Translations under genes and position numbers: made by a program
From: Candidatus Bathyarchaeota archaeon
GTDB lineage: Archaea > Thermoproteota > Bathyarchaeia > Bathyarchaeales > Bathycorpusculaceae
DNA: 64,000 bases
Assembly (NCBI GenBank): GCA_963767735.1
Contig: CAVYES010000005.1
Span: 320,001-384,000, forward strand
Direction: 5' to 3'
Notes under the pieces: generated by a model
Told to the model about the DNA's origin: nothing
Seen by the model: only the letters and a program-made list of their open reading frames with translations
Database searches by the model: none
In this document: positions 1 through 63,578 of the stretch, one piece after another
Layout of the letters: every line of letters begins with the position of its first letter
Numbering within the stretch: the first letter of the stretch is position 1

Positions 1-637
1 CAAGCCAGACTTGCACATTGTAGTTGCTGACCCTCACAGGCCTGGAGACGAACTTAGATATCATCCTGGCGAAACAAACCTGAGAATGGCAAATGTAGTT
101 GTCATTAACAAAGTGGATACAGCTGACCCTGAAAATGTGAAGACCGTCAGAAAAAATGTCATAAGCGTAAACGCTGAAGCTGAAATAATTGAAGCAGCTT
201 CCCCCATCACCGTTGACAAGCCAGAACTTGTAGCTGGAAAAAGGGTACTTGTTGTTGAAGACGGTCCAACAGTGACCCATGGACAAATGGCCTATGGAGC
301 AGGAGCGTTAGCGGCAAAGATGCTGGGAGCCAAAGAACTGGTGGATCCCCGCCCCTACGCAGTGGGCTCGATTGCTAAAACGTTTGAGAAATATCCACAT
401 TTAAAATCTGTTCTTCCAGCAATGGGCTACAGTTCAGAACAGATACATGAGCTGGAGCAAACAATAAACGCTACACCATGCGACACAATTCTCATAGGAA
501 CGCCGATAGACCTGCGCAGATTCCTCAACTTAAACAAGCCAAGCGCCAAAGCCACCTATGAGCTTCAAGAAATCGGAACACCCAATCTTGAAGAAATCCT
601 AAAGAACTTTTTTTTCAAAACCGCAAAAAACAGTTGA
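1..637 (+). CDS. Predicted GTPase / cyclic 2,3-diphosphoglycerate synthetase-like protein (COG2403), 5'-truncated by window
   Basis: Frame open to the window start (KPDLHIVVADPHRPG); motifs INKVDTA, VVEDGPTVTHG, LPAMGYS, IGTPIDL typical of the family. Confidence 0.8.
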   Translation, partial: KPDLHIVVADPHRPGDELRYHPGETNLRMANVVVINKVDTADPENVKTVRKNVISVNAEAEIIEAASPITVDKPELVAGKRVLVVEDGPTVTHGQMAYGAGALAAKMLGAKELVDPRPYAVGSIAKTFEKYPHLKSVLPAMGYSSEQIHELEQTINATPCDTILIGTPIDLRRFLNLNKPSAKATYELQEIGTPNLEEILKNFFFKTAKNS

Positions 638-13758: not shown

Positions 13759-14163
13759 CTACATTAGCGTCTTCTGCTTTCTCGCAGCCCGATCGCTTTG
13801 AAGCTTCCTGTAAACCGCCTCAACATTTTTCCTTTCCACGTACCCTTTGTGGGGGCGGAAACCGCCCGAGAAGCCGCCTGGAATATGCATCAGTTCATGA
13901 ATCAGAGTTCTCTCTTTATCTTCAGCTGACATTCTGTCGTAAATCTCCGAAATAACCTCGATGGTGTATGAGGGCGGGAGGTTTAGGACTCCTTGCCAAA
14001 TTCTGCCTAAACCGTGGATGCGTGCGATTGTGCGTCTGGCTTTGGAGCCTTTGCTTCTTACGCAGAAAACGAATTGTGGAACAACATGGTAGAACTCGCA
14101 TTCCTCTGCCAACTGGTCTACTTGCTTTTTGATTTCTGGGGCTTCAAAGTACTTAATCGGCGT
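13759..14163 (-). CDS. Putative HExxH metallopeptidase
   Basis: VRSKGS..IARIHG, LIHELMHIP, GGFRPH; frame open upstream to ACG-PIKYFEAPEIK. Confidence 0.8.
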   Translation of the reverse strand, partial: TPIKYFEAPEIKKQVDQLAEECEFYHVVPQFVFCVRSKGSKARRTIARIHGLGRIWQGVLNLPPSYTIEVISEIYDRMSAEDKERTLIHELMHIPGGFSGGFRPHKGYVERKNVEAVYRKLQSDRAARKQKTLM

Positions 14164-35659: not shown

Positions 35660-35678
35660 TGGACGGGGGGATTTGAAC
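35660..35678 (-). repeat. Degenerate copy of the tRNA-Ala 3' end (att-like)
   Basis: tggac-ggggggatttgaac versus tggactgggggggatttgaac at 44335. Confidence 0.75.
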
Positions 35679-35686
35679 TCTCAGCA

Positions 35687-35792
35687 AAGTGGAGATGTCA
35701 CCCGCGATTTCCTTTTTTTTCTAAATTTTTGTTACTGAAAACCGTTTGAACTACGTTTGAGGGAACATACCCTAAGTGGTGGTGTCTCCCGC
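35687..35792 (+). repeat. Pair of 19-bp motifs AAGTGGnGrTGTCwCCCGC (35687-35705, 35774-35792)
   Basis: Same motif also at 40697, 40786, 57158, 58655; each followed by CC(C) and a T-tract. Confidence 0.85.
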
Positions 35793-35849
35793 ATAATCCC
35801 CTCTTTTTCTTTTTTATGTTCCCAATTTTCTCCGAAGTTTTTGTCTCTT

Positions 35850-37280
35850 CAGTAGATGGAAAAGTAGCTTAAGGGTTTGATATTAGTATTTTAGTGCAAA
35901 CAATTGAGATCTTGCGCTCAGACGATAAAGCGTAAATCAAAAGAACGAAAAGTTTCAAGCAAAGTCTTCAAGTTCACAGCCAACCTGCTCAACAACTACC
36001 TGCAGTTTCCAGCAGCCAAAAACAGCCTCTACACCAGCAGTCATATCAACCAATGTCTAATCCAACTCTCGCTCTCCCAAAGCTACGCTGAAGGCGGCTT
36101 ATTAGACCTCTCAGAAAAATGCGCTATGCCAAACAAGGTTCCCACGGGAAGAACCTTCAGAGGAAGAATAGAGCGTTTAGCTGAGAAGCAGATTCGAGAC
36201 TCACTTATAGAAGCAAACGATCAGGTTCTACTCATCCTACGATGCTATAGCATCTTCAGACGCAAAGCAGTGGTTGCAATTGATTATACCAGGCAACCGT
36301 TCTACGGAAACCCAGACGCTAAGAATGTGATAGGCGGCAAACAGGAGAGAGGAACAAATTGGGGCTACACGTATGCCAGCATGGATATTGTTGAAGCCGG
36401 AAGACGATTAGCAATCTACTCTATTACCGTAAACCAGTTCAGCGAGAAAGCACAGGTTGTAGAGAAACTACTCTTTGAAGCAAAGGCAAGAGGGGTACAC
36501 ATCAGTATAGTGCTGCTTGACCGCGCATTCTTCACAGTAGACGTCATTACTATGCTCAAGAGTTTAGGCGTCTATTTCATCATTCCAGCGGTTAAGAATG
36601 GCACAGTCAAAGAAGCAATGATGAACTATGACCAGAAGCAGCGAGCCAAACGTTTCACTTTGGGCAATAAAAGAAAAAGCGTCAGCTTCACTCTCTACAT
36701 CTATAAACGACCAGCAGGGCAGTTGCCGAAAAAGAAGAAGCTTACTGTTTGTGATCTCTATTTTGGTTTTGCAACGAATCTTCCAAGGTCTTTGGCTCTT
36801 GCGTTGCCGTCGTCTATTCCTTCTGAGTACAGGCGGAGGTGGGGTATTGAGACTGGTTATCGTGTGCAGGATAATGCTCAGGCTAAAACTACAAGCACCA
36901 ACTACAAGCTTAGGCTGCTCTACCAGATGGCTTCTGTGCTGCTCTACAATGTTTGGCATTACGCTAACTTTCTGCTCTGCAGGGCTTTGAAGAAGGCGTT
37001 TGATAGGCCAGTTTTGACGTTGACGCGGTTGGCTGTGCATTTTGAAGGCTTTGTTATTGGCGGGTTAGGGCCACCTCGACGGTAAGCATTCTCAGATGCA
37101 GTTCGAGGGACTCGATCGCGTAGATCAGACCCTAAACTCCGCCACTTTCTCAACTATTCAAGCCTTCAGGATATAAAACTGTTCAATGAAAAAGCTTGCT
37201 TAGAACGCTCCGATCGAGGAATTGTTATGATTACGATGTGAATGAAGCATCAGAATCATAAACTACTTTTCCATCTACTG
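35850..37280 (+). mobile_element. ISH3-family (IS4-like) insertion sequence, 1431 bp
   Basis: TIRs CAGTAGATGGAAAAGTAG / CTACTTTTCCATCTACTG; 5-bp TSD CTCTT (35845-49, 37281-85); empty site seen at 40856. Confidence 0.95.
35904..37085 (+). CDS. ISH3-family DDE transposase
   Basis: AIDYT, LLDRAF, YRRRWGIETGYR. Confidence 0.93.
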   Translation: MRSCAQTIKRKSKERKVSSKVFKFTANLLNNYLQFPAAKNSLYTSSHINQCLIQLSLSQSYAEGGLLDLSEKCAMPNKVPTGRTFRGRIERLAEKQIRDSLIEANDQVLLILRCYSIFRRKAVVAIDYTRQPFYGNPDAKNVIGGKQERGTNWGYTYASMDIVEAGRRLAIYSITVNQFSEKAQVVEKLLFEAKARGVHISIVLLDRAFFTVDVITMLKSLGVYFIIPAVKNGTVKEAMMNYDQKQRAKRFTLGNKRKSVSFTLYIYKRPAGQLPKKKKLTVCDLYFGFATNLPRSLALALPSSIPSEYRRRWGIETGYRVQDNAQAKTTSTNYKLRLLYQMASVLLYNVWHYANFLLCRALKKAFDRPVLTLTRLAVHFEGFVIGGLGPPRR

Positions 37281-37508
37281 CTCTTTGAGCTAAATTTATA
37301 TAAATTAGTTATTTATTATAAGATAGACTAATTTTTGTAATAAAATAAGCGAAAATGCCACTATTTACCCAAGTTTTATAAGGAAGTTGGCAAGATATGG
37401 GGCTTTCGGGTAAGAAACATGAATGCTATAAATGCTCTCGCCCAAAAAAGAGTTTTTTTATGTATTTATGCTTCTTGCTAAAAAAAATAAAATTGAAGGA
37501 AAAGAAAA
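37281..37508 (+). promoter_or_regulatory. Promoter/leader region nearly identical to 40856-41084
   Basis: Direct comparison; TATA-like TTTATAAG and CTATAAAT. Confidence 0.75.
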
Positions 37509-40430
37509 ATGCAAAATATAAAAGGTAAAACTTTGGCTATTTTGATTGCAGCAATTTTAACAATTTCCATAGGAGCTTCAACAGCATTAATGCCGAGCGC
37601 TAGTGCACATACACCTGCATGGCAAATTCCAACTTTCGCCTACATTTTTGCGGAACCTAACCCTATTGGCGTCGGTCAGACAATACAAGTTTACATGTGG
37701 CTTGACCCTGTTTATGGAGCGGCTGGCGGAACAGTTGCAACTGTTGGCACTAATGGTTACACCGCCAGTACAGCATTGCTAGCAAACGACTATAGATTCG
37801 ATAACTACAAGCTTACCATCACAGCGCCCAGCGGTGCAGTCTCAACAGAGACTTGGGCTGTAGTAACAGATCCAACCTCAGCACAGGAAACGTCATTTAC
37901 CCCCAGCGCCGCCGGCACGTACAATTTCACCTTTAGCTTTCCGGGACAGACCTACGGAGTAAATGGTGACGGTTTTGCAGGTTCACCTCTGATTAACGAT
38001 ACATATCTGCCAAGCAGTGCATCAACAACGCTTACTGTTCAGTCATCGCCGATTCCTGCGGCTGTAGGTAGTTCTCCGCTTCCAACTGTTTATTGGCAAA
38101 GCCCTGTTTACGGTGAGAACACTAACTGGTATTCGATTACGTCAAACTGGCTAGGTACAGGTTCACCGGTTCCAGCAGGGTATACTAGCGACACACTGTA
38201 CCATGGTGACAACCTAGGACCTCTGACTTCTCATATCATGTGGACAGGCCAACTTCAAGACGGAGGAGTTGTTGGAGGAAACTATTTTGCTAATGATCAG
38301 GGCGTCGGCTTCTTCGAGGGTTCTTCATACCAGCCAAGATTCGGCAATCCGATACTAATTGACGGATACCTATACTACACAGAACCAGCAGCATTCACAG
38401 GTTCCACAAGTGGACCAACAGTCTGCGTTAACCTGCAAACAGGGCAACAAATTTGGAGCAGCACTACCATACCTGCACTATCATTCGGTTACGAATATGA
38501 CCTATGGGACCCCGACCAGCACGGATCTTTTCCACCAATCTTAGTCGCAGCCAATTCAATTACAGGCAACTGGCAACTTTATGATGCATACACAGGAGAC
38601 GCATTGTTCAACGTAACTGGTGTTCCGTCAGGCTCGGCGACAATGGGTCCAAGCGGTGAAGTGTTGAGATATGTCTTTAACAACGCAGGCACAGTCGCAA
38701 ATCCACATTGGTATTTGGCTGAGTGGAACATGTCCAAACTATGGCAGTACGATATAATCCCATATACCGGCGCTGGAAGCACATCACCAGACCCTATAAA
38801 TGCAACAAACGGAGTTCTCATTCCAACGCTGCCTATTCCAATTCAAGGCGAGTATGGTACCGCTCCAAATGGAGCAAGTGTTCTTGTTCCCTACGGTTCG
38901 ACAATAACAGTCAACGCTAACATTCCTATTGACGACACTGCCCTTGCCCCTGGAACGACAACGCCTATCGGACAAATCAATGGTGATTCTTTAACTACTT
39001 ATGACTGGAACGTCTCGGTACCTTGGGTAAATACTATGCCTCCGCCATATTCCACTGTTGGCGTCACAGGACAATTAATACCTCCAGCTCCGGGAGCAAA
39101 TCCAGTAACGGTAGAGTTTGTTAATTATGGCGATGTCATGCTTTGCATAAATGGTTCCCTACCTACTGGTTTCGACAGGACCTATTCTGGCTATCCAGAG
39201 CTTCCATGGACAATGTTTACTGTCAACCTCAACGCATCTATGGGCGCAATCGGTTCGGTACTGTGGATGCAGACCTATAATCCGCCATTAGGCAACCTTA
39301 CTGTTCTGTGTGACGGAGCCGACTTCCAAACTCGTGTGTTTGTTTTGAGTTATGAGGAAACTATGCAATGGGTAGGATACAGTCTGACAACGGGTGCACT
39401 GCTATGGGGTCCAACTACTTCCTTACCTAACGACTTCAATTATTATAGTACATCATATACTTATGCAAGTAACCTGGCTTACGGCAACATCTACTTCATG
39501 GGGTATGCAGGAGTACTTTACTGCTTTAGCGATTTGACTGGAAAAATACAGTGGACCTACGGTAACGGTCCAATGGGGTCCGACAACAGTACTAACGCCG
39601 GCTTTAACACGCCTTACGGTGATTATCCAACCAACATAGAATCCGTTGCTGATGGAGTAGTATACATATCTACGGAAATGCACACTATCAGCGACCCGAT
39701 TTACAAGGGCTGTACAGCAGCCGCTATTAACGCTACCAACGGACAACTAATCTGGGGTCTTTCCGATTACTGCAGCGAGTGGACCGCCCCAGGCAGTTCT
39801 TGGGTTGTCGCAGATGGCTATGCAACATTCATGAACGGTTACAACAACCAAATCTACAGTGTCGGCAGAGGACCCAGCGCAACCACAATACAAGCACCAC
39901 AGACTACTGTCACAGCAGGGACCAACGTGGTAATCCAAGGTACAGTGATGGATAAGTCCGCTGGCACGCAGCAGAGCCAACAGTTAGCTGACTTTCCAAA
40001 CGGGGTTCCATGTGCATCAGATGCAAGCATGCAGGCTTGGATGGGCTACGTTTACCAGCAGCAACCAGAGCCAACCAACTTCACAGGCGTAACAGTAACA
40101 TTGACCGCTATTGATCCAAACGGCAACTTCGTAACTCTCGGCACAGCTACAACTGATTCAAGCGGCTTATACCACTACACTTGGACCCCTCCGAGTATTC
40201 CAGGAAACTACCTCGTCACAGCAACATTCGCTGGCACCAACGGCTATTGGGGATCAAGGGCTGAAACTGCCATGACAGTACAAGGAGCAACTTCTGCTAC
40301 TGCGGTGCCTACAGCTACTCCGGCTTCTGTCGCTAATGTGTACTTTGTTCCTGCAATCGCTGGCTTATTCGTTTTAATCATCATAGTCCTTGCCTTAGTG
40401 ATCTTAATGATGCTCAGGAAACGACCATAA
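37509..40430 (+). CDS. Large secreted surface protein with PQQ-like beta-propeller repeats, Ig-like C-terminal domain and TM anchor (paralog 1)
   Basis: Signal peptide, VNLQTGQQIWS / INATNGQLIW propeller repeats, DPNGN..ATFAGTNGYW, TM + RKRP. Confidence 0.85.
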   Translation: MQNIKGKTLAILIAAILTISIGASTALMPSASAHTPAWQIPTFAYIFAEPNPIGVGQTIQVYMWLDPVYGAAGGTVATVGTNGYTASTALLANDYRFDNYKLTITAPSGAVSTETWAVVTDPTSAQETSFTPSAAGTYNFTFSFPGQTYGVNGDGFAGSPLINDTYLPSSASTTLTVQSSPIPAAVGSSPLPTVYWQSPVYGENTNWYSITSNWLGTGSPVPAGYTSDTLYHGDNLGPLTSHIMWTGQLQDGGVVGGNYFANDQGVGFFEGSSYQPRFGNPILIDGYLYYTEPAAFTGSTSGPTVCVNLQTGQQIWSSTTIPALSFGYEYDLWDPDQHGSFPPILVAANSITGNWQLYDAYTGDALFNVTGVPSGSATMGPSGEVLRYVFNNAGTVANPHWYLAEWNMSKLWQYDIIPYTGAGSTSPDPINATNGVLIPTLPIPIQGEYGTAPNGASVLVPYGSTITVNANIPIDDTALAPGTTTPIGQINGDSLTTYDWNVSVPWVNTMPPPYSTVGVTGQLIPPAPGANPVTVEFVNYGDVMLCINGSLPTGFDRTYSGYPELPWTMFTVNLNASMGAIGSVLWMQTYNPPLGNLTVLCDGADFQTRVFVLSYEETMQWVGYSLTTGALLWGPTTSLPNDFNYYSTSYTYASNLAYGNIYFMGYAGVLYCFSDLTGKIQWTYGNGPMGSDNSTNAGFNTPYGDYPTNIESVADGVVYISTEMHTISDPIYKGCTAAAINATNGQLIWGLSDYCSEWTAPGSSWVVADGYATFMNGYNNQIYSVGRGPSATTIQAPQTTVTAGTNVVIQGTVMDKSAGTQQSQQLADFPNGVPCASDASMQAWMGYVYQQQPEPTNFTGVTVTLTAIDPNGNFVTLGTATTDSSGLYHYTWTPPSIPGNYLVTATFAGTNGYWGSRAETAMTVQGATSATAVPTATPASVANVYFVPAIAGLFVLIIIVLALVILMMLRKRP

Positions 40431-40494
40431 AAAGGATTAACAACCACAATCTCTCTTTCCCCTTTTTTTGTCTTAAAAGCACGTTGAAACATGA

Positions 40495-40600
40495 GGGCTG
40501 AGAAGGCTCTGGTTAATCACGATTTACGCTCTTGCTCAGTATCGTGGTGGCGCATTTGCATTTGCCTTCTTTTCTCCTTTAAAAGTTCCAGAGCCTCAAA
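40495..40600 (+). other. Conserved structured non-coding element (copy 1)
   Basis: AGGCTCTGG/CCAGAGCCT closing stem, ATCACGAT/ATCGTGGT hairpin; homologous to 44155-44255. Confidence 0.6.
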
Positions 40601-40667
40601 AACCCCCAATTTATCTGATGCCATCAATCACTAATTGTTTTTTTAAAAAAAAAGTTTGATCTTCAAA

Positions 40668-40693
40668 TGGACTGGGGGGGATTTGAACCCCCG
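40668..40693 (-). repeat. Perfect 26-bp copy of the tRNA-Ala 3' end (att-like)
   Basis: tggactgggggggatttgaacccccg identical to 44335-44360. Confidence 0.95.
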
Positions 40694-40696
40694 CCA

Positions 40697-40804
40697 AAGT
40701 GGAGATGTCACCCGCAAAACCCTCTTTTTTCTAAATTTTAGTTACTAAAAAATCATTTGATCTACTGTTCGGTGGAACATACCCTAAGTGGTGATGTCTC
40801 CCGC
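40697..40804 (+). repeat. Second pair of 19-bp motifs (40697-40715, 40786-40804)
   Basis: aagtggagatgtcacccgc and aagtggtgatgtctcccgc. Confidence 0.85.
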
Positions 40805-41084
40805 GCAATCCCTCTTTTTCTTTTTCATGTTCCCAATTTTCTCCGAAGTTTTTATCTCTTTGAGCTAAATTTACATAAATTAGCTATATTCATAAAAATG
40901 AACTAATTTTTGTAATAAAATAAGCGTAAATGCCACTATTCACCTAAGTTTTATAAGGAAGTTGGCAACATATGGGGCTTTCGGGTAAGAAACATGAATG
41001 CTATAAATGCTCTCGCCCAAAAAAGAGTTTTTTTTATGGATTTATGCTTCTTGCTAAAAAAAATAAAATTGAAGGAAAAGAAAA

Positions 41085-44081
41085 ATGCAAAAAATAAAAA
41101 GTAAAACTATGGCTATTCTTATTGCTTTATGCTTAACACTTTCAATGTCAGCTTCAATGATGCTTATACCAAACGCTAGTGCACATACACCTGCATGGCA
41201 GATTCCAACGTATGCCTACATTACTGGGATACCTAGCACTATAGGTGTCGGTCAGACAATAACTGTTTACATGTGGCTTGACCCTGTTTACGGAGCAGCT
41301 GGCGGAACAAGTGCCGTTATTTTAACGAATGGCTACACAGCCAGCACAGCATTGACAGCAAACAACTACAGATTCGATAACTACAAGCTTACCATCACAG
41401 CGCCAAACGGTGCAGTCTCAACCCAAACTTGGGCTGTTTGCTCAGACCCAACATCATCCGTGTTCACATCCTTCACTCCCACACAAGTCGGCACATACAA
41501 TCTAACCTTTAACTATCCAGGACAAGTCTATGGAGCAAATGGCAACGGCTACTCTGGTTCACCATTGGTTAACGATACTTACCTGGCAAGTAGCGCATCA
41601 ACAACACTTACTGTACAATCAACACCAATCGCCGCGCCCGTAACTAGCGAACCATTACCAACAAATTACTGGGCACGCCCAATATACGGTGAGAACACCA
41701 ACTGGTACACGATTTCGTCAAACTGGCTAGGCTCAGGTATGCCACAAATAGCAGGCTATACTAGCTCCTCAGTATACCACGGTGATGCAGTAGGATCTCT
41801 GACGGCTCATATCATGTGGACACTGCCGATTCAAGCGGGTGGAATTGTCGGAGGAAACGAGTACACTACTGCTACGGGAGTTGGCTACTTCGAGGGCTCT
41901 TGCTACATAGGAAGATTCTCCAATCCGATAATTGTAGACGGATACCTATACTTCAACGCACCATCATCATTCACGGGAGGCGCTGTTGGACCATTCGAGT
42001 GCGTTAATCTGCAAACAGGACAAATTGTTTGGTCTTCTAACGCTATACATTCGGTATCATTCGCTTACATCTATAACCTTTGGAATGGTGAACAGCACGG
42101 AGTTTTTCCGCCAATTCTGGTTTCAACTGCAGGAGGCGGTCTCACCGGTATGCCTTCGATGTGGACGCTTTGGGATGGATTCACAGGAGAGCAATTGTTC
42201 AACGTTACTAATGTTCCAGGATTTGCAGCACAAACAGGCCAAACCGTAGGAGGCCAGCCAGCCACGGCTCTCACAACCTCGACAGTAGCGGGCCCAAGCA
42301 GTGAAATATTAAAATATGTCTTTATGAACGACGGCACCGCCGCGAATCCTCAATGGTATTTGGCTCAGTGGAACTCGTCCGATCTATGGCAATACGATGT
42401 AAATCCATACACTTTCGGTGGAAGTCTGTCACCATCAATTGTTAATGCATCCAACGGGGTCCTTGTTTCATCTGCAGGCATTCCTCAAACAACTTTGGGC
42501 ACCACAGGTACCACGCCAACGGGAGGAAGCGTTTTCATCCCCTATGGTTCCACAATAACAGATAATGCATTCATCCCTCTTAACGCCACAACTATATACC
42601 CGGAGAACCTTGGTGCACGAACCACTTTTGACTGGAACGTTTCCGTACCATGGATTAACAACATGCCAATGCAGCCTACCTACCCCAGCCTCGGGGGGAC
42701 AGGGTCACCAATACCAACATTTATGCAAGGAACCGCTATCGGTGATTTCGCAGCAGGCGGAACATGTCCTGTAACGATAGTTGCAGCTAACTATGGCGAT
42801 GCTATGCTTTGCAGAAACGGTTCTCTACCAAGCGGTTTCACGACAACTATGGCTGGATACCCACAACTTCCCTACACCCTCTTCCTTGTCAACCTCAACG
42901 CAACTGTGGGTCCAATCGGTTCAATACTATGGATGAAGAACTATAACCCGCCAGCAGGAAACCTTACTGTCAGCATTCCCGCAGTCGACTGGCAGACACG
43001 TACCTTCCTCGAATATTATGACGAACTAGAGGAATTTACTGGATTCAGTCTGACTACAGGCGCACAGATATGGGGTCCAACTGCACCTATGGTTCCCCTG
43101 CAATACTATGATATTGGTTACGGCATTCTCGGTGCAGCGGCTTACGGCAACTACTACTGCGATAACATGGGAGGCGTATGCTACTGCTACAACGACTTGA
43201 CTGGAACTCTAGAGTGGACCTTCGGCAACGGTCCATCCGGCTCAGACAACAGCACTATGAGCTTGAGTTCTCCTTACGGTGAATATCCACAATACGTTGG
43301 ACCCATTTCTGGTAACGGAATAGTATACCTGATGTCCAATGAACACACAGTCACAGACCCGATTTACAAGGGCGCATTTTTAGCCGCTCTTAACGCCACT
43401 ACAGGACGAGAAATATGGACTCTTTCATGCTACGGCAGTATGGCTACCCCCGCACTCTCAGACGGCTATACAACATTCCTCAACGGTTACGACATGCAAA
43501 TCTACACTGTAGGCAGAGGACCCAGCGCAACCACAGTGCAAGCGCCACAGACCGCTATCACAGCAGGCAGCAACGTAGTAATACAGGGCACAGTGATGGA
43601 TACTTCCGCTGGCACACAACAATCAACGGTGAAAGCTGATTTTCCAAGTGGCGTTCCATGCGCATCTGATTCAAGCATGACTGACTGGATGGGCTACGTT
43701 TACCAGCAGCAAGCAGAACCAACTAACTTCACAGGTGTAACAGTAACATTGACAGCTATGGATCCCAACGGCAACTTCATCACCCTCGGCAGCGCTACAA
43801 CCGATGCAAAAGGCAACTTCATCTACTCATGGCAGGCTCCAAGCGTCCCAGGGAAATACACCGTCACCGCGACATTCGCTGGCACCAACGGTTACTGGGG
43901 TTCAAGCGCAGAAACCGGCATGACCGTACAAGCACCTTCGGCTACTTCGGCACCTACAGCTGCACCAGTATCGGGTCTAGCAACAATGTCAGGCCTAACT
44001 ATGGGAATCGCTGTTGTAATAATCGTTATGATAATTGCAATCGCCATAGTAGGCTTACTCCTGCTAAGAAAAAAGCCGTAA
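41085..44081 (+). CDS. Large secreted PQQ-like beta-propeller surface protein (paralog 2)
   Basis: Colinear with 37509-40430 (HTPAWQIPT, YMWLDPVYGAAGG, WMGYVYQQQ), TM + RKKP. Confidence 0.85.
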   Translation: MQKIKSKTMAILIALCLTLSMSASMMLIPNASAHTPAWQIPTYAYITGIPSTIGVGQTITVYMWLDPVYGAAGGTSAVILTNGYTASTALTANNYRFDNYKLTITAPNGAVSTQTWAVCSDPTSSVFTSFTPTQVGTYNLTFNYPGQVYGANGNGYSGSPLVNDTYLASSASTTLTVQSTPIAAPVTSEPLPTNYWARPIYGENTNWYTISSNWLGSGMPQIAGYTSSSVYHGDAVGSLTAHIMWTLPIQAGGIVGGNEYTTATGVGYFEGSCYIGRFSNPIIVDGYLYFNAPSSFTGGAVGPFECVNLQTGQIVWSSNAIHSVSFAYIYNLWNGEQHGVFPPILVSTAGGGLTGMPSMWTLWDGFTGEQLFNVTNVPGFAAQTGQTVGGQPATALTTSTVAGPSSEILKYVFMNDGTAANPQWYLAQWNSSDLWQYDVNPYTFGGSLSPSIVNASNGVLVSSAGIPQTTLGTTGTTPTGGSVFIPYGSTITDNAFIPLNATTIYPENLGARTTFDWNVSVPWINNMPMQPTYPSLGGTGSPIPTFMQGTAIGDFAAGGTCPVTIVAANYGDAMLCRNGSLPSGFTTTMAGYPQLPYTLFLVNLNATVGPIGSILWMKNYNPPAGNLTVSIPAVDWQTRTFLEYYDELEEFTGFSLTTGAQIWGPTAPMVPLQYYDIGYGILGAAAYGNYYCDNMGGVCYCYNDLTGTLEWTFGNGPSGSDNSTMSLSSPYGEYPQYVGPISGNGIVYLMSNEHTVTDPIYKGAFLAALNATTGREIWTLSCYGSMATPALSDGYTTFLNGYDMQIYTVGRGPSATTVQAPQTAITAGSNVVIQGTVMDTSAGTQQSTVKADFPSGVPCASDSSMTDWMGYVYQQQAEPTNFTGVTVTLTAMDPNGNFITLGSATTDAKGNFIYSWQAPSVPGKYTVTATFAGTNGYWGSSAETGMTVQAPSATSAPTAAPVSGLATMSGLTMGIAVVIIVMIIAIAIVGLLLLRKKP

Positions 44082-44154
44082 AAACATAACAATAAAACAA
44101 CCACAATCCCTCCTTCCCTTTTTTTAGTCTTTAGAAAGCAGCGAGAAAAGAAGT

Positions 44155-44255
44155 GGCTGAGAAAGCTCTGGTTAATCACGATTTACGTAATCGCTCAGTA
44201 TCGTGATAGGCATTGCATTTGCCTTCTTTTCTCCTTTAAAAGTTCGAGAGCTTCT
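44155..44255 (+). other. Conserved structured non-coding element (copy 2)
   Basis: AAGCTCT/AGAGCTT closing stem, ATCACGAT/ATCGTGAT hairpin, AGGCA/TGCCT hairpin. Confidence 0.6.
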
Positions 44256-44334
44256 GCAAACCCCAAATGCTTTGGAATGTCCGCTAATCTCTCAATTCTC
44301 TTTTTTTAGGAAAGGAGGCTTAATATTTTCAAAG

Positions 44335-44408
44335 TGGACTGGGGGGGATTTGAACCCCCGACCTCTTGAGTGCAAGTCAAGCGTTCATACCAGCTGAACT
44401 ACCAGCCC
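44335..44408 (-). tRNA. tRNA-Ala(UGC)
   Basis: GGGCTGG...CTTGA-CTTGCAC-TCAAG...GGGGGTTCAAATCCCCC CCAGTCCA cloverleaf; G3:U70 Ala identity pair. Confidence 0.97.
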
Positions 44409-55518: not shown

Positions 55519-56971
55519 TCATTTAGTGGGTACTTGTTTCCTTACGTCTTTTCCTCTTATGATGGATAATACGCCTGCAATTGCCAGGATTATTATTGAT
55601 GCGTAAAATGCGTGGTCTATGCCTGATATGAATGTTTGGCTGACGCCGCCTGTGAGGCTTTTGGTTCCGATAAACACTTCGAATGCTACATACCTGGGTA
55701 TTGAGGCTGCTGCAACTGAGATTGCTAAAACGTAGCTTCCGACTAATCCGATGTTTTGCACCATTCGCAGCAAGCCTGAGATGCTGCCAAACGATCCTGT
55801 TCTTGCATTTGCCATGACGGCGCTGTTGTTGGCTGGGAAGAACATGGAGGTTCCTAAGCCGGAGACTGCTGAAGCGAAAAGCACGATGTAGAGCGGCGAG
55901 GTTGCACCCATTGTTAAGTAAATCAGTATGGCGACGGCTAAGAAGAATATTCCCAGTGTAGCGATTTCTCTTGAACCGTACTTGTCGGATAATCTGCCCA
56001 TTATTGGACCAAGAAAACTGCCTGCCACATATCCAGGAACCAGCAGTAAAGAAGCATTCAGCGGCGTCAACGCTCTTATTCCCTGCAGATACATTATCAC
56101 GAGGAACACTACGGAGAAGTAGCCGATACTTACAAATAACGCTGAAAAGATTGCGTTCCGCAGAACCCTGTTTTTGAAGGCTTCAAAATCAATCATGGCA
56201 TTTTTAATCCTGCGATCATACAATATGAAAACAGGTATCAGCACCGCGCCAATTACTGATAAAGTGACGTTTAAGGAGTTGATTCCGTTTGAAGCAAAAT
56301 TTACTAATCCCAAAGAGAGCAGTACCAATGCTGCGGCAAGCAGGCCCATTCCAGCCAGGTCCAATTTGGCAGGTGTTTTTTCGGTGTCCTTTATGTATTT
56401 TAAGCCCGCTATCACCGCGATTATGCCGATTGGGATGTTTATGAAAAAGATGTACTGCCAGCTAACGTAGGTGGTGATTATTCCTCCTAAAACGATGCCA
56501 AGCATTGCTCCAGCCGTAAAGCCAAGCGAATTGTAACCGTATGCTCTGCCGCGTCTTTCTCTGGGAAAATAGTCAGCTATTATGGCTCCGCTGGTTGCTT
56601 GCAGAAGGGCTCCGCCTGCCGCCTGAATTGTTCGGAAGCCTATGAGAAGATAGATTTGACGGTGAGAAACCGCAGAGGGCTGAGCCGACTGTGAAGATTA
56701 CGAAGCCTAAGTTGAATATTTTGCTTCTGCCGAAGATGTCTCCTATTCTTCCCATCTGCGCGGTTGCAACGGCGAGAACAAGAAGATAAGCAAGAATAAT
56801 CCACAGAGACGTTGACAGGTCTGAGTGGAGCTTGTCATTTATGGTTGGAAAAGCCAGCAGAACGATTGTACTGTCAAGCGCACCCATGAGAGTTCCAAGC
56901 ATCACGATGGCTAACACTATATTGCTGTGTCTTCCAGGGCTAGAAATCGGTTTGCCGGGTGCTTCTTGCAT
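55519..56971 (-). pseudogene. DHA2-family MFS transporter, frameshifted
   Basis: ORFs 56573-56971 and 55519-56505 join if one A is removed near 56656 ([27 protein letters not shown]). Confidence 0.85.
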
Positions 56972-57135
56972 TCAATTCACCGTTAGCTACCTTTCTTTTG
57001 GAATCGTATTGTTAATTAAAATTTACTTGGTTCCTTTAAAAATATTAACTAATTTACTGAGGTAGACAACTAAAAACATAGAGTTTCTTAAGTTAAAAAG
57101 TGTATTGATTGGAGACAATAAACTGCAAAACCAGA

Positions 57136-57176
57136 GGATAAGTAATTATCCTATAGGAAGTGGCGATGTCTCCCGC
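57136..57176 (+). repeat. Palindrome GGATAA-GTAA-TTATCC plus the 19-bp motif (57158-57176)
   Basis: GGATAAGTAATTAT recurs at 59484-59497; motif aagtggcgatgtctcccgc. Confidence 0.7.
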
Positions 57177-57287
57177 AAACCCCTTTTTCTTTAAGTATAC
57201 TTAGCGAAATAGTCAAAAGGTGATAAGTATTGGAATCGAAAATCGTTAATTGCCTTAGGAGCAAGCTTGATTTGAGAGATAAGAGTG

Positions 57288-58397
57288 CTATAGTTTTTTA
57301 AAGTCTTCCAATGCCTTCTTGAGATCCATTGCCGCGTTGAAAGATAGATCGTCAGTGTCGTATTCAATTCTTTTTAAGCCCTTAAGGTTTGGAGGCAGAT
57401 CTACTTTTCTCTCAACCAACAGAACAACCTGCGTATTGTATTTCAGATAGGCCGCATCGATTTCAGAGGTTACATTTGAATTAAGGATGTAGATTCCGCT
57501 GTACCTTCGCTCCTGTTCAGCGGCAGCGATGTTTATTATTGCACAATCACAGTCTTGCATCAACCCGAATTTATTTTCAGAAATTGGCACAGTTGTTTCT
57601 TCTTTATCGCCCATGACGTAGTCATAATGCAGAAAATCCAACATTTTCTTCACCTGGTCAGAAACTTGGGTGCTGCTATTAGATATGAAGACACGAGGTT
57701 TCAGACCTTCTTTTTGGGGCTCATTTGGCGCTCTTTCAACAAAAGGTGCTGTTTTAGTCACTTGGTCGTCAATTACATATGCAGGTGGCGCCTCAAAGGT
57801 GACTGGTAAGCTTGCAAGGTTTTTAATCCTGGCAGCATAGCGCTTATTCATTAGTTCATTTATGCGTAGCAGCTGAAGTTCAATTCCATTTTCCAATGCT
57901 GTTATTTTTCCCTCTAGAGCGGTGTCATCAAAATCGGGTGCTACAATTATGCCCTTTTGTGCTCTTCCGTTTACTAGCACTTTGACAAAGGCTTCAACAT
58001 CAGCCAAGCGGACAGGATCGGATTGTTTAATCAAAAGAGGTTGACCTCCCTCGGTAAACCCGCTTACGCCTGTAGCTGGGTCGCTTGGTTTGCCATTGAA
58101 TTTTTTTATTACCCGGTCTTCGAAGTCACTGGAGGAAACTCCGCCATTTAGACTCTTTTCATTCCTCCTTTTCTTAAAAACAAATACAAAAGTGACAACA
58201 ACAACTACTGCTACAACCGCTATGATTCCGCCAATAAGTAATAAGGCAGAGGTACTTCCAAGTATTCCTGCTTTGGTTGGGGTTGGCTGTGTCGTTGAGC
58301 TTGGTGTTAATGTTTGGCAATAGGATATTTGCGGAAGGACTACAACTAAAAAAAAGAAACACGCTATAATAGTGGCTACTAGGAATTTTTTATTCAT
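57288..58397 (-). CDS. Membrane-anchored protein: signal peptide + TM + Mrr-like domain + TIR-like (CAP12/Pycsar-type) domain
   Basis: FEDRVI..KQS..VEAF..KGIIVA (Mrr_cat-like); PRVFIS..NVTSEI..VDLPPNLKGLKRIEY (TIR-like). Confidence 0.7.
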   Translation of the reverse strand: MNKKFLVATIIACFFFLVVVLPQISYCQTLTPSSTTQPTPTKAGILGSTSALLLIGGIIAVVAVVVVVTFVFVFKKRRNEKSLNGGVSSSDFEDRVIKKFNGKPSDPATGVSGFTEGGQPLLIKQSDPVRLADVEAFVKVLVNGRAQKGIIVAPDFDDTALEGKITALENGIELQLLRINELMNKRYAARIKNLASLPVTFEAPPAYVIDDQVTKTAPFVERAPNEPQKEGLKPRVFISNSSTQVSDQVKKMLDFLHYDYVMGDKEETTVPISENKFGLMQDCDCAIINIAAAEQERRYSGIYILNSNVTSEIDAAYLKYNTQVVLLVERKVDLPPNLKGLKRIEYDTDDLSFNAAMDLKKALEDFKKL

Positions 58398-58630
58398 GAT
58401 TTTGCATTCCTTTGATGTGGATAATGTTTAACTTCCCGACCATAGGTAAATACCTACTGTGAATGGAAGGTTATTGGTATATCGCCTTAAAAAACTATTG
58501 AAAAGAAATGCCTAGTCTCAAATTCAGCTTTCGAGTACTCGTTGTCAATTTTTGTTTACGAAAGCAATGAGAGCGATACTCTAGTTTCTCAGAAATCGCT
58601 CGGTCTACAGTTTTCATTCATTGTAGTGTA

Positions 58631-58673
58631 GAGGGTGGATTTGAACCTTTACCGAAGTGGAGATGTCACCCGT
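58631..58673. repeat. Decayed tRNA 3'-end-like sequence plus the 19-bp motif
   Basis: gagggtggatttgaacc followed by aagtggagatgtcacccgt (58655-58673), same layout as 35660 and 40668. Confidence 0.7.
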
Positions 58674-58723
58674 AATCCCATTTTCTTGCGCAGGTTCTAT
58701 GCCGTCTTTTTTTCCTTTGAGGC

Positions 58724-63410: not shown

Positions 63411-63578
63411 GCCGGGGTAGCCTAGCCTGGCTAGGGCGCCAGACTCATAATCTGGTAAAAACACACAATCCAGATGAGAAATCTGGAGACTTAGGGGCTA
63501 AACGTCCAAAGCCAGAGGTCGCGGGCTCGAATCCCGCTCCAGAAACAGAATTAACGTCTGTTTCGGCGAACGGCACCA
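63411..63578 (+). tRNA. Elongator tRNA-Met(CAU) with three BHB introns (63450-63480, 63489-63517, 63541-63570) and encoded CCA
   Basis: Removing the three inserts gives GCCGGGG..CCAGA-CTCATAA-TCTGG-AGGTC-GCGGG-CTCGAAT-CCCGC-TCCCGGC-A-CCA. Confidence 0.88.

Follow-up and report, generated by a model that had tools for sequence, protein, structure and literature searches.

Two tandem surface-protein units at a bathyarchaeal tRNA-Ala gene and a 19-bp box that recurs beside tRNA 3' fragments in Bathyarchaeia

How did two large, related surface-protein genes come to stand head to tail behind the 3' end of a tRNA gene, with a copy of that tRNA end at the start of each? We considered this question for a 64,000-nucleotide stretch of a Candidatus Bathyarchaeota archaeon genome (contig CAVYES010000005.1, positions 320,001 to 384,000; hereafter the window), which is archaeal by its genes for eukaryote-type topoisomerase IB (TopoIB), eRF1, Alba, RPA-like OB folds, and formylmethanofuran:tetrahydromethanopterin (H4MPT) formyltransferase (FTR). 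For the abundant and uncultured Bathyarchaeia, the ways in which genomes gain new genes are poorly understood. Behind tRNA-Ala(UGC) in this window lie two homologous units, A (35660-40667) and B (40668-44334), each an islet of about 3.6 kb with one surface-protein gene and its own upstream region. Our tentative answer, to which we give somewhat less than an even chance, is that two related, non-autonomous islets bounded by attachment-site (att) repeats were inserted one after the other at the tRNA-Ala 3' end and that their 5' ends were homogenised afterwards. The part order is the same in both units, namely tRNA-end copy, m1 box with T-tract, m2 box with T-tract, AT-rich upstream region with leader, gene, T-tract, and 3' flank. 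Here, coordinates and alignment bear out an earlier, sequence-only reading of this DNA, which had described two units of these sizes with a common order of parts at tRNA-Ala. The features are as follows.

35660-35684 (-): distal copy of the tRNA-Ala 3' end (att-type repeat), variant TGGAC-GGGGGGATTTGAACTCTCAG
35687-35705 (+): m1-type 19-bp box (AAGTGGAGATGTCACCCGC), then T-tract; unit A
35774-35792 (+): m2-type 19-bp box, then T-tract; unit A, 87 bp from m1
35850-37280 (+): ISH3-like insertion sequence (IS), transposase open reading frame (ORF) at 35904-37085; unit A
37281-37508 (+): upstream region and 5' leader of gene A, 96% identical to those of gene B
37509-40430 (+): gene A, secreted, C-terminally anchored beta-propeller/immunoglobulin (Ig)-like surface protein of 973 amino acids (aa)
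40431-40667 (+): 3' flank of unit A, with T-tract and short conserved hairpin CACGAT..ATCGTG; homologous to 44082-44334
40668-40693 (-): middle copy of the tRNA-Ala 3' end, 26/26 against the tRNA
40697-40715 (+): m1-type 19-bp box, then T-tract; unit B
40786-40804 (+): m2-type 19-bp box, then T-tract; unit B, 89 bp from m1
40861-41084 (+): upstream region and 5' leader of gene B
41085-44081 (+): gene B, 998-aa paralogue of A (60% aa identity, dS 0.72)
44082-44334 (+): 3' flank of unit B
44335-44408 (-): intact tRNA-Ala(UGC) (ARAGORN, start 44334/44335; Rfam, 70.6 bits)

Two units bounded by copies of the tRNA-Ala end

The 3'-terminal 26 nt of tRNA-Ala comprise the T-arm, the acceptor 3' strand, and the discriminator, and this exact sequence occurs twice in the window (40668-40693 and 44335-44360), with none expected from 100 shuffles. 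In fact, the middle copy at 40668-40693, reported earlier as a perfect 26-bp att copy on the tRNA-proximal side, agrees with the tRNA at 26/26 positions. The locus thus shows what is looked for in a tRNA-integrated element, that is, flanking direct repeats of the tRNA 3' part and an intact tRNA at one end. The distal copy had been described as decayed. It does differ from the tRNA, with two bases missing and CCCCCG replaced by CTCTCA, but simple decay is not an apt description, since its half-site GAACTCTCA (right half CTCTCA) is also joined to a box at loci L042 and L086 of other genomes. Moreover, Ala-type copies at four other loci share with the middle copy the sequence CCCCnGCCA followed by AAGTGG, where the genuine tRNA has CCCCCGACCT. 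Because half-site variants recur in other genomes, the box-side half behaves as element-borne sequence that has separate lineages, of which units A and B would accordingly seem to carry different ones. The DNA to the left of the middle and the tRNA-proximal cores is homologous (the ~240-bp 3' flanks of A and B align up to the next core) and hence element-borne, whereas that to the left of the distal core is unrelated and hence chromosomal. Such a layout is the one that would be expected for the order chromosome-core-A-core-B-core-tRNA.

Along the two units, the identity between A and B takes the form of a mosaic, with 82-91% in the att and box segment, 86-97% in the upstream region, 77-82% in the first ~400 nt of the gene, 40-75% in most of the gene, 75-84% in the Ig-like part, and, in the 3' flank, 84% as mean column identity or 61-72% per 100 columns with gaps as mismatches. 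The near-identity of the upstream regions, already pointed out from the letters, amounts to 96% (37279-37520 against 40856-41096), and these AT-rich stretches with a TATA-like box are putative promoters. Between the units, the boxes differ at only 1 of 38 positions, while the adjacent stretches diverge by 9-18%. Taken with the nearly unchanged boxes, the mosaic implies that the 5' end is either far younger or far more constrained than the synonymous sites. The 3' flank had been called a conserved structured element; the conservation stands (84% mean column identity), though the fold is unconvincing, with weak z-scores for the two copies (plus strand, -1.2 and -0.5; minus strand, -2.9 and -1.0) and predicted folds that differ between them. 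As a separate observation, the ~120 nt before the start codons (37390-37508 and 40966-41084) are 97% identical and include a GGGGCTTTCGGG...GCTCTCGCCC segment and a purine-rich tract ahead of the ATG; this stretch could be a regulatory leader, and neither copy matched an Rfam family at gathering score.

Proteins A (973 aa) and B (998 aa) are 60% identical, with 0.72 synonymous (dS) and 0.29 nonsynonymous (dN) substitutions per site and a dN/dS of ~0.4. Both start with a signal-like segment and contain Ig-like domains in the C-terminal part as well as a linker rich in Thr, Ser, Pro, and Ala; a transmembrane (TM) helix lies at the C-terminus, and the basic tail after it ends in RKRP or RKKP. Their designation as PQQ-like propeller surface proteins is borderline, as A lies just above the PQQ_2 cut-off (27.9 against 27.6 bits) and B falls below it (22.2 bits); PF13360 is present in most of the 120 homologues listed. 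With more than 1252 homologues, the family is a large, multi-copy one, and the titles of its members are almost all Bathyarchaeia or Bathyarchaeota. In the tree, A and B sit in separate clades (support of 96-100 in the Shimodaira-Hasegawa-like approximate likelihood ratio test, SH-aLRT), and the nearest relatives are P0059 for A (74% identity) and P0002 and P0003 for B (77-78%), as against only 60% between A and B. Hence, A and B are not each other's closest relatives and have separate ancestry. On another contig (161,479 bp), P0001 is identical to B at 957 of 959 positions (99.8%) and has a frameshifted C-terminal tail, and there is no match to A of at least 90% identity among long or short proteins, except for two fragments of 137 aa that have no contig. 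This is a hint that the presence of unit A varies, with gaps in gene calling or assembly as an alternative cause.

A 19-bp box at tRNA-fragment junctions

Each unit contains two 19-bp boxes spaced 87-89 bp apart, as the sequence-only reading had noted, and to these four exact sites we add two new ones at 57158 and 58655, both on the plus strand. All six exact matches in the window (0.14 expected) are co-oriented, and a profile search of the window gave no further copies. In a motif scan of species-representative genomes, we found at least 119 loci, of which 39 have flanks of only ~300 bp per side; the counts that follow refer to the matches and loci listed. Among the 119 matches, 69 are archaeal-type, with 65 titled Bathyarchaeia or Bathyarchaeota and the other four belonging to Hermodarchaeum, Thermoproteota, an 'uncultured archaeon', and one bacterial-titled contig of a metagenome-assembled genome (MAG) with the same flanks. 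The remaining 50 are bacterial and have no common flank, and since ~140 matches would be expected by chance in 596 Gb (our own arithmetic), they look like background. A T-tract lies within 25 nt downstream of 62 of the 67 evaluable archaeal matches and of 2/50 bacterial ones, and a T-loop-like sequence within 35 nt upstream of 34/67 and 0/50, respectively.

When up to three mismatches were allowed, the loci yielded 92 box copies, and 48 of these carry the reverse complement of a tRNA 3' part. Here, the junction is fixed, with the box starting 7 nt past GGATTTGAACC in 37 of the 48 T-arm copies and 6 nt past it in nine, which corresponds to about tRNA nucleotide 44-48. The fragments derive from several tRNA identities, and some are Ala-like (TGGACY...) and some have an encoded CCA. 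Judged from these sequences, the recurrence of the box together with tRNA fragments is class-wide in Bathyarchaeia. The T-arm copies are mostly of the GGAGATGTCACC form (32/48), and those without a T-arm mostly of the ...TCTCC form (35/44). The outer three base pairs of the T-stem are all paired in just 11 of the 48 box-adjacent copies, which would be consistent with hybrid junctions, and in a test of this the information content of the two T-stem halves was roughly symmetric. Two typical units of tRNA fragment, box, and T-tract lie on contigs with other titles, namely L058 (Candidatus Sulfotelmatobacter, near a T4 gp19-like tail-tube gene and a matrixin) and L063 (an Asgard MAG contig of Candidatus Hermodarchaeum), and may reflect mis-binning or a spread past Bathyarchaeia.

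An alignment fold of the 48 units gave five predicted pairs at -3.5 kcal/mol, with compensatory changes at 0/5, and the box unit matched no Rfam family, the best score being that of mascRNA (19 bits against a cut-off of 42.5). In phage and plasmid collections, the T-arm matched tRNA genes only, or nothing. Several identities for the box were considered and set aside. As a split tRNA or tRNA intron, it would call for an intact T-arm and a matching 5' half; only 11/48 T-stems are intact, no 5' halves were found by eye before the 44 T-arm-less copies, and there is often no room for a 5' exon. A C/D-box, H/ACA, or other known RNA is countered by the absence of an Rfam match and of covariation. Pairing between m1 and m2, though possible at 12/12 positions in the window, is not kept in the doublets of L036, L027, and L041, and the terminal inverted repeat of a miniature inverted-repeat transposable element (MITE) or casposon would not fit the 18 multi-copy loci, none of which has an inverted copy.

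In all 18 of these multi-copy loci, the extra copies are co-oriented, and consecutive copies mostly enclose one gene, on either strand and with unrelated cargo. The cargo comprises a methyltransferase with a YdjM-like protein (L017), a cupin (L080), a secreted 476-aa protein (L030), an FG-GAP protein (L057), two DUF3795 genes (L042), a transposase (L006), and small ORFs. Three arrays, those of the window (Ala), L042 (Gln), and L025 (Lys), run up to a tRNA gene on the complementary strand, each time on the same side. At eight places there are doublets with a spacing of 81-124 bp. One of them, in L030 (~215-440, minus strand), has two fragment-plus-box units 113 bp apart, each after a homologous ~40-nt flank, so that the 113-bp 'empty' unit repeats flank, core, and box; a third unit with the same tRNA-like part was seen in this locus 1.7 kb away, beyond one secreted-protein gene. 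The box is not tied to the surface-protein family, a distant member of which is nearby in three of the 69 archaeal-type loci (L036, L047, and L079), and other neighbours include PQQ, NosD, and FG-GAP surface proteins, AbiE, and Shedu. Moreover, units stand beside homologues of Alba (L013), TopoIB (L020), FTR (L043), and a luciferase-like monooxygenase (L010), and at the matching sites of the window the units are absent or displaced. This presence and absence beside orthologous genes indicates that units come and go and do not serve particular genes as fixed regulatory sites.

The window itself holds a second box-bounded stretch (57158-58673), whose two ends are as follows.

57128-57192 (+): third-locus box of m2 type, with a 9-bp hairpin upstream in place of a tRNA fragment
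58630-58690 (+): decayed tRNA-like T-arm with m1-type box

These boxes, at 57158 and 58655, bracket one gene (57288-58397, minus strand) for a 369-aa protein with an N-terminal TM segment and a weak match to a CAP12/Pycsar Toll/interleukin-1 receptor (TIR)-like domain (E=0.0026); PADLOC and NCBIfam gave no match for it or for A and B. The hairpin with box is also found in L010, L085, and L115. In L010, it directly adjoins the luciferase-like monooxygenase homologue, and in the window 3.1 kb lies between the two (a BNR protein and major facilitator superfamily (MFS) genes). The genome search for tRNA-end and motif junctions that the sequence-only reading had put forward did turn up other cargo and co-oriented arrays, in the window and in other Bathyarchaeia. 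What did not hold is the motif as a cassette-specific boundary, since about half of the copies have no tRNA fragment and many lie beside housekeeping genes.

How the units may have arisen

On our preferred reading of sequential insertion, each islet would have entered through site-specific recombination within an identity block of about tRNA nucleotides 45/48 to 73, which is the kind of block expected if a tyrosine integrase makes its crossover within or close to the T-loop. Recombination would have left the displaced tRNA 3' fragment joined to the conserved arm of the element, that is, the 19-bp box and then the T-tract. Unit A would have been the earlier arrival, and unit B would then have gone in between it and the tRNA, the sources of the two being related yet distinct members of one element family. 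Later, the 5' ends (att, boxes, promoter, and the first ~400 nt of the gene) would have been homogenised or held constant, and the recombinase would act in trans from a gene outside the window. A T-loop class of tRNA integration sites was reportedly described by Williams in 2002. The units have the marks of a non-autonomous att-flanked element, in being att-bounded, lacking recombination genes, and accreting in tandem. For sequential insertion, as first proposed from the sequence, speak the flank layout, the separate clades of A and B, and the recurrent half-site, though an old duplication with 5' conversion also fits. Were this reading correct, the 19-bp signature at tRNA-fragment junctions would help to map insertion hot spots, to find the responsible recombinase, and to trace the turnover of a surface-protein family that probably shapes cell-surface diversity.

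A number of results weigh against such insertion. Pfam scans of the 61 window ORFs (15 + 46) contained no Phage_integrase or other site-specific recombinase, in keeping with the early statement that neither unit encodes one, and the sole recombination-type match among them is the DDE transposase of the IS. At the ~40 listed loci with 2-kb flanks, an integrase was found in 0/108 flank ORFs (55 right, 53 left), and no excision junction or empty site was seen in the assembled sequence examined. As the excision product, the empty site, and the recombinase were all unseen, we infer mobility itself, along with the recombination mechanism and the order of events. Furthermore, 44 of the 92 box copies have no tRNA fragment, the box-side fragments in L042 and L025 are not copies of the adjoining tRNA, and many boxes adjoin core genes (TopoIB, eRF1, TBP, MetRS, FTR, and PolB). 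The units are also homologous over their full length, with identity falling smoothly from the 5' end, which a duplication with conversion fits equally well. Lastly, the 1.196-Mb contig of one relative (1,196,093 bp) holds both the B-clade P0002 and the A-clade P0016, so that the split between A and B is old.

Foremost among the alternatives is an old in-situ tandem duplication of a single att-bounded islet through unequal crossing-over between the tRNA-end repeats on its two sides, with coding divergence and gene conversion at the 5' ends and the middle core, to which we allow a real though clearly minor chance. Selection on the coding regions would then be relaxed or diversifying, and the box a general intergenic element without a role in mobility here. 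This would explain two units homologous end to end in the same order, and the fall in identity, with 97% for the leader, 77-82% for the first 400 nt of the gene, and 40-70% for mid-gene, resembles a conversion tract. The dN/dS of ~0.4, the joint presence of A-clade and B-clade members on the relative's contig, and the size and multi-copy nature of the family (more than 1252 homologues) point the same way. Yet, at a dS of 0.72, an unconstrained middle core should have decayed, and it is 26/26, while the distal core departs from the tRNA through a variant common to two other genomes and not through scattered changes. Moreover, A and B each have closer relatives elsewhere, and in the tree the path from A to the relative's A-clade protein (P0016, 0.65) is twice as long as the path from B to the relative's B-clade protein (P0002, 0.33).

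We regard as improbable an integron-like cassette system, in which 'hairpin or tRNA T-arm, box, and T-tract' would itself be the recombination site, in the manner of attC, single-gene cassettes would be inserted and excised by a dedicated recombinase whose gene lies elsewhere, and tRNA 3' ends would be one class of entry site. Integrons have been reported in Archaea (10.1101/2022.02.06.479319 / PMC9668308). Like integrons, the 18 listed loci and the window have arrays of mostly single-gene units with a short recurrent site between them and all sites co-oriented. The range of cargo (surface proteins, methyltransferase, cupin, DUF3795, TM/TIR-like protein, and IS), the doublets and 'empty' units of 81-124 bp at eight places, the variable presence of units beside orthologous Alba, TopoIB, FTR, and luciferase-like monooxygenase genes, and the far better conservation of the box than of its surroundings would likewise suit such a system. 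Unlike integrons, there is no attI, the sites are fused to tRNA fragments, and the cargo, which lies on either strand, has its own promoter here. No IntI lies next to an array among the 61 window ORFs or the 108 flank ORFs, nor is there any recombinase near the ~40 loci with 2-kb flanks, and the fold of the 48-unit alignment, with covariation at 0/5 predicted pairs, shows nothing like the long imperfect palindrome of attC (57-141 bp, hairpin). Promoterless, co-oriented cassettes are likewise missing, as A and B have upstream regions of their own and other arrays have genes on either strand. In addition, both variable box positions track the presence of the T-arm and do not assort like the halves of a crossover site, and housekeeping genes are frequent neighbours. 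The integron-like system proposed in the sequence-only reading is thus not upheld. In its widest form, an undescribed, Bathyarchaeia-wide system with a trans-acting recombinase would insert, stack, and swap self-expressed single-gene cassettes (surface proteins, enzymes, and possibly defence genes) at tRNA 3' ends or existing units; this has a slim chance in our estimate and, if true, would give archaea an equivalent of integrons whose sites derive from tRNAs.

Least probable, and quite unlikely, is that the box and T-tract form a transcript-level or DNA-binding element (a protein-bound terminator, an insulator, or a small-RNA end) scattered intergenically in Bathyarchaeia, with the adjoining tRNA fragments as unrelated scars and the box silent on how the units arose. 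T-runs terminate archaeal transcription, and the sequence is invariant with a T-run 7-9 nt further on (62 of 67 archaeal copies), the copies are intergenic, and the box is conserved in situ while the adjoining tRNA fragment decays; however, its orientation relative to genes is not fixed (at ~24 of 38 loci, in our reading of the ORF tables, a minus-strand gene ends at the T-tract side), a junction fixed in 46/48 T-arm copies is unexpected under chance adjacency, Rfam has no match (mascRNA, 19 bits against 42.5), structural covariation is absent, and the split-tRNA idea fails for want of 5' halves by eye before the 44 T-arm-less copies and with most T-stems broken. If the box were instead a terminator or binding site, it would still be an unannotated, class-wide regulatory element.

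Known systems and further features of the window

Passages of three reports (PMC8371274, PMC9897764, and PMC3293823) document tandem stacking, integrase-less integrated elements, and the loss of integrases after integration in archaea, and one of them (PMC9897764) describes attR scars in the form of partial tRNA genes, as with the 44-bp repeats around PYG1. As far as the passages of PMC8371274 portray archaeal tRNA-targeted elements, the present locus resembles them in its intact tRNA at one end, its direct repeats of the tRNA 3' part, and its tandem stacking. It differs from them in that its units are small (~3.6 kb), carry one cargo gene each, and lack genes for an integrase, for replication, or of viral type, and in having a conserved 19-bp box whose distance from the core is constant and which many genomes share, with several tRNA identities. 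Word-based literature searches, which are blind to sequence, found no prior description of a box so placed.

In bacteria, cis-mobilisable elements (CIMEs) are att-flanked and accrete beside integrative and conjugative elements (ICEs). Units A and B are like CIMEs in being non-autonomous, att-bounded, without recombination genes, and in tandem with related elements at one site, and unlike them in having no autonomous partner or integrase in the 64-kb window, an archaeal host, and a tRNA T-arm core. Repeats of the repetitive extragenic palindrome/bacterial interspersed mosaic element (REP/BIME) type, or MITE-like ones, are short, lineage-specific, and intergenic, with many per genome and sometimes in doublets. 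The box shares these traits, as well as a variable presence beside orthologous genes, though it lacks terminal inverted repeats and inverted doublets (18 loci) and has a fixed fusion to tRNA 3' fragments.

The IS in unit A has inverted repeats of 18 bp that match perfectly and is flanked by a target duplication of 5 bp (CTCTT at 35845-35849 and 37281-37285), and its transposase matches DDE_Tnp_1 (E=1.9e-8) and, below the cut-off of 225 bits, NF033541 (164 bits). With a DDE transposase, inverted repeats, and a target duplication, it belongs to the ISH3/IS4-type IS. Elsewhere in the window, a tRNA-Met(CAT)-like gene (63415-63540, plus strand; 29.1 bits in Rfam and missed by ARAGORN) has two apparent introns, the first near nt 43-45, past the anticodon stem, and the second within the 3' strand of the acceptor stem; the first is at about the same tRNA position as the junction between fragment and box. 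An MFS transporter (55519-56971, minus strand) is split into ORFs of 328 aa and 132 aa and is probably a frameshifted pseudogene or the result of an assembly indel. Finally, a small ORF (13759-14112, minus strand) that matches 'putative phage metallopeptidase' (PF18894, E=6.6e-17) adjoins the topoisomerase IB gene.

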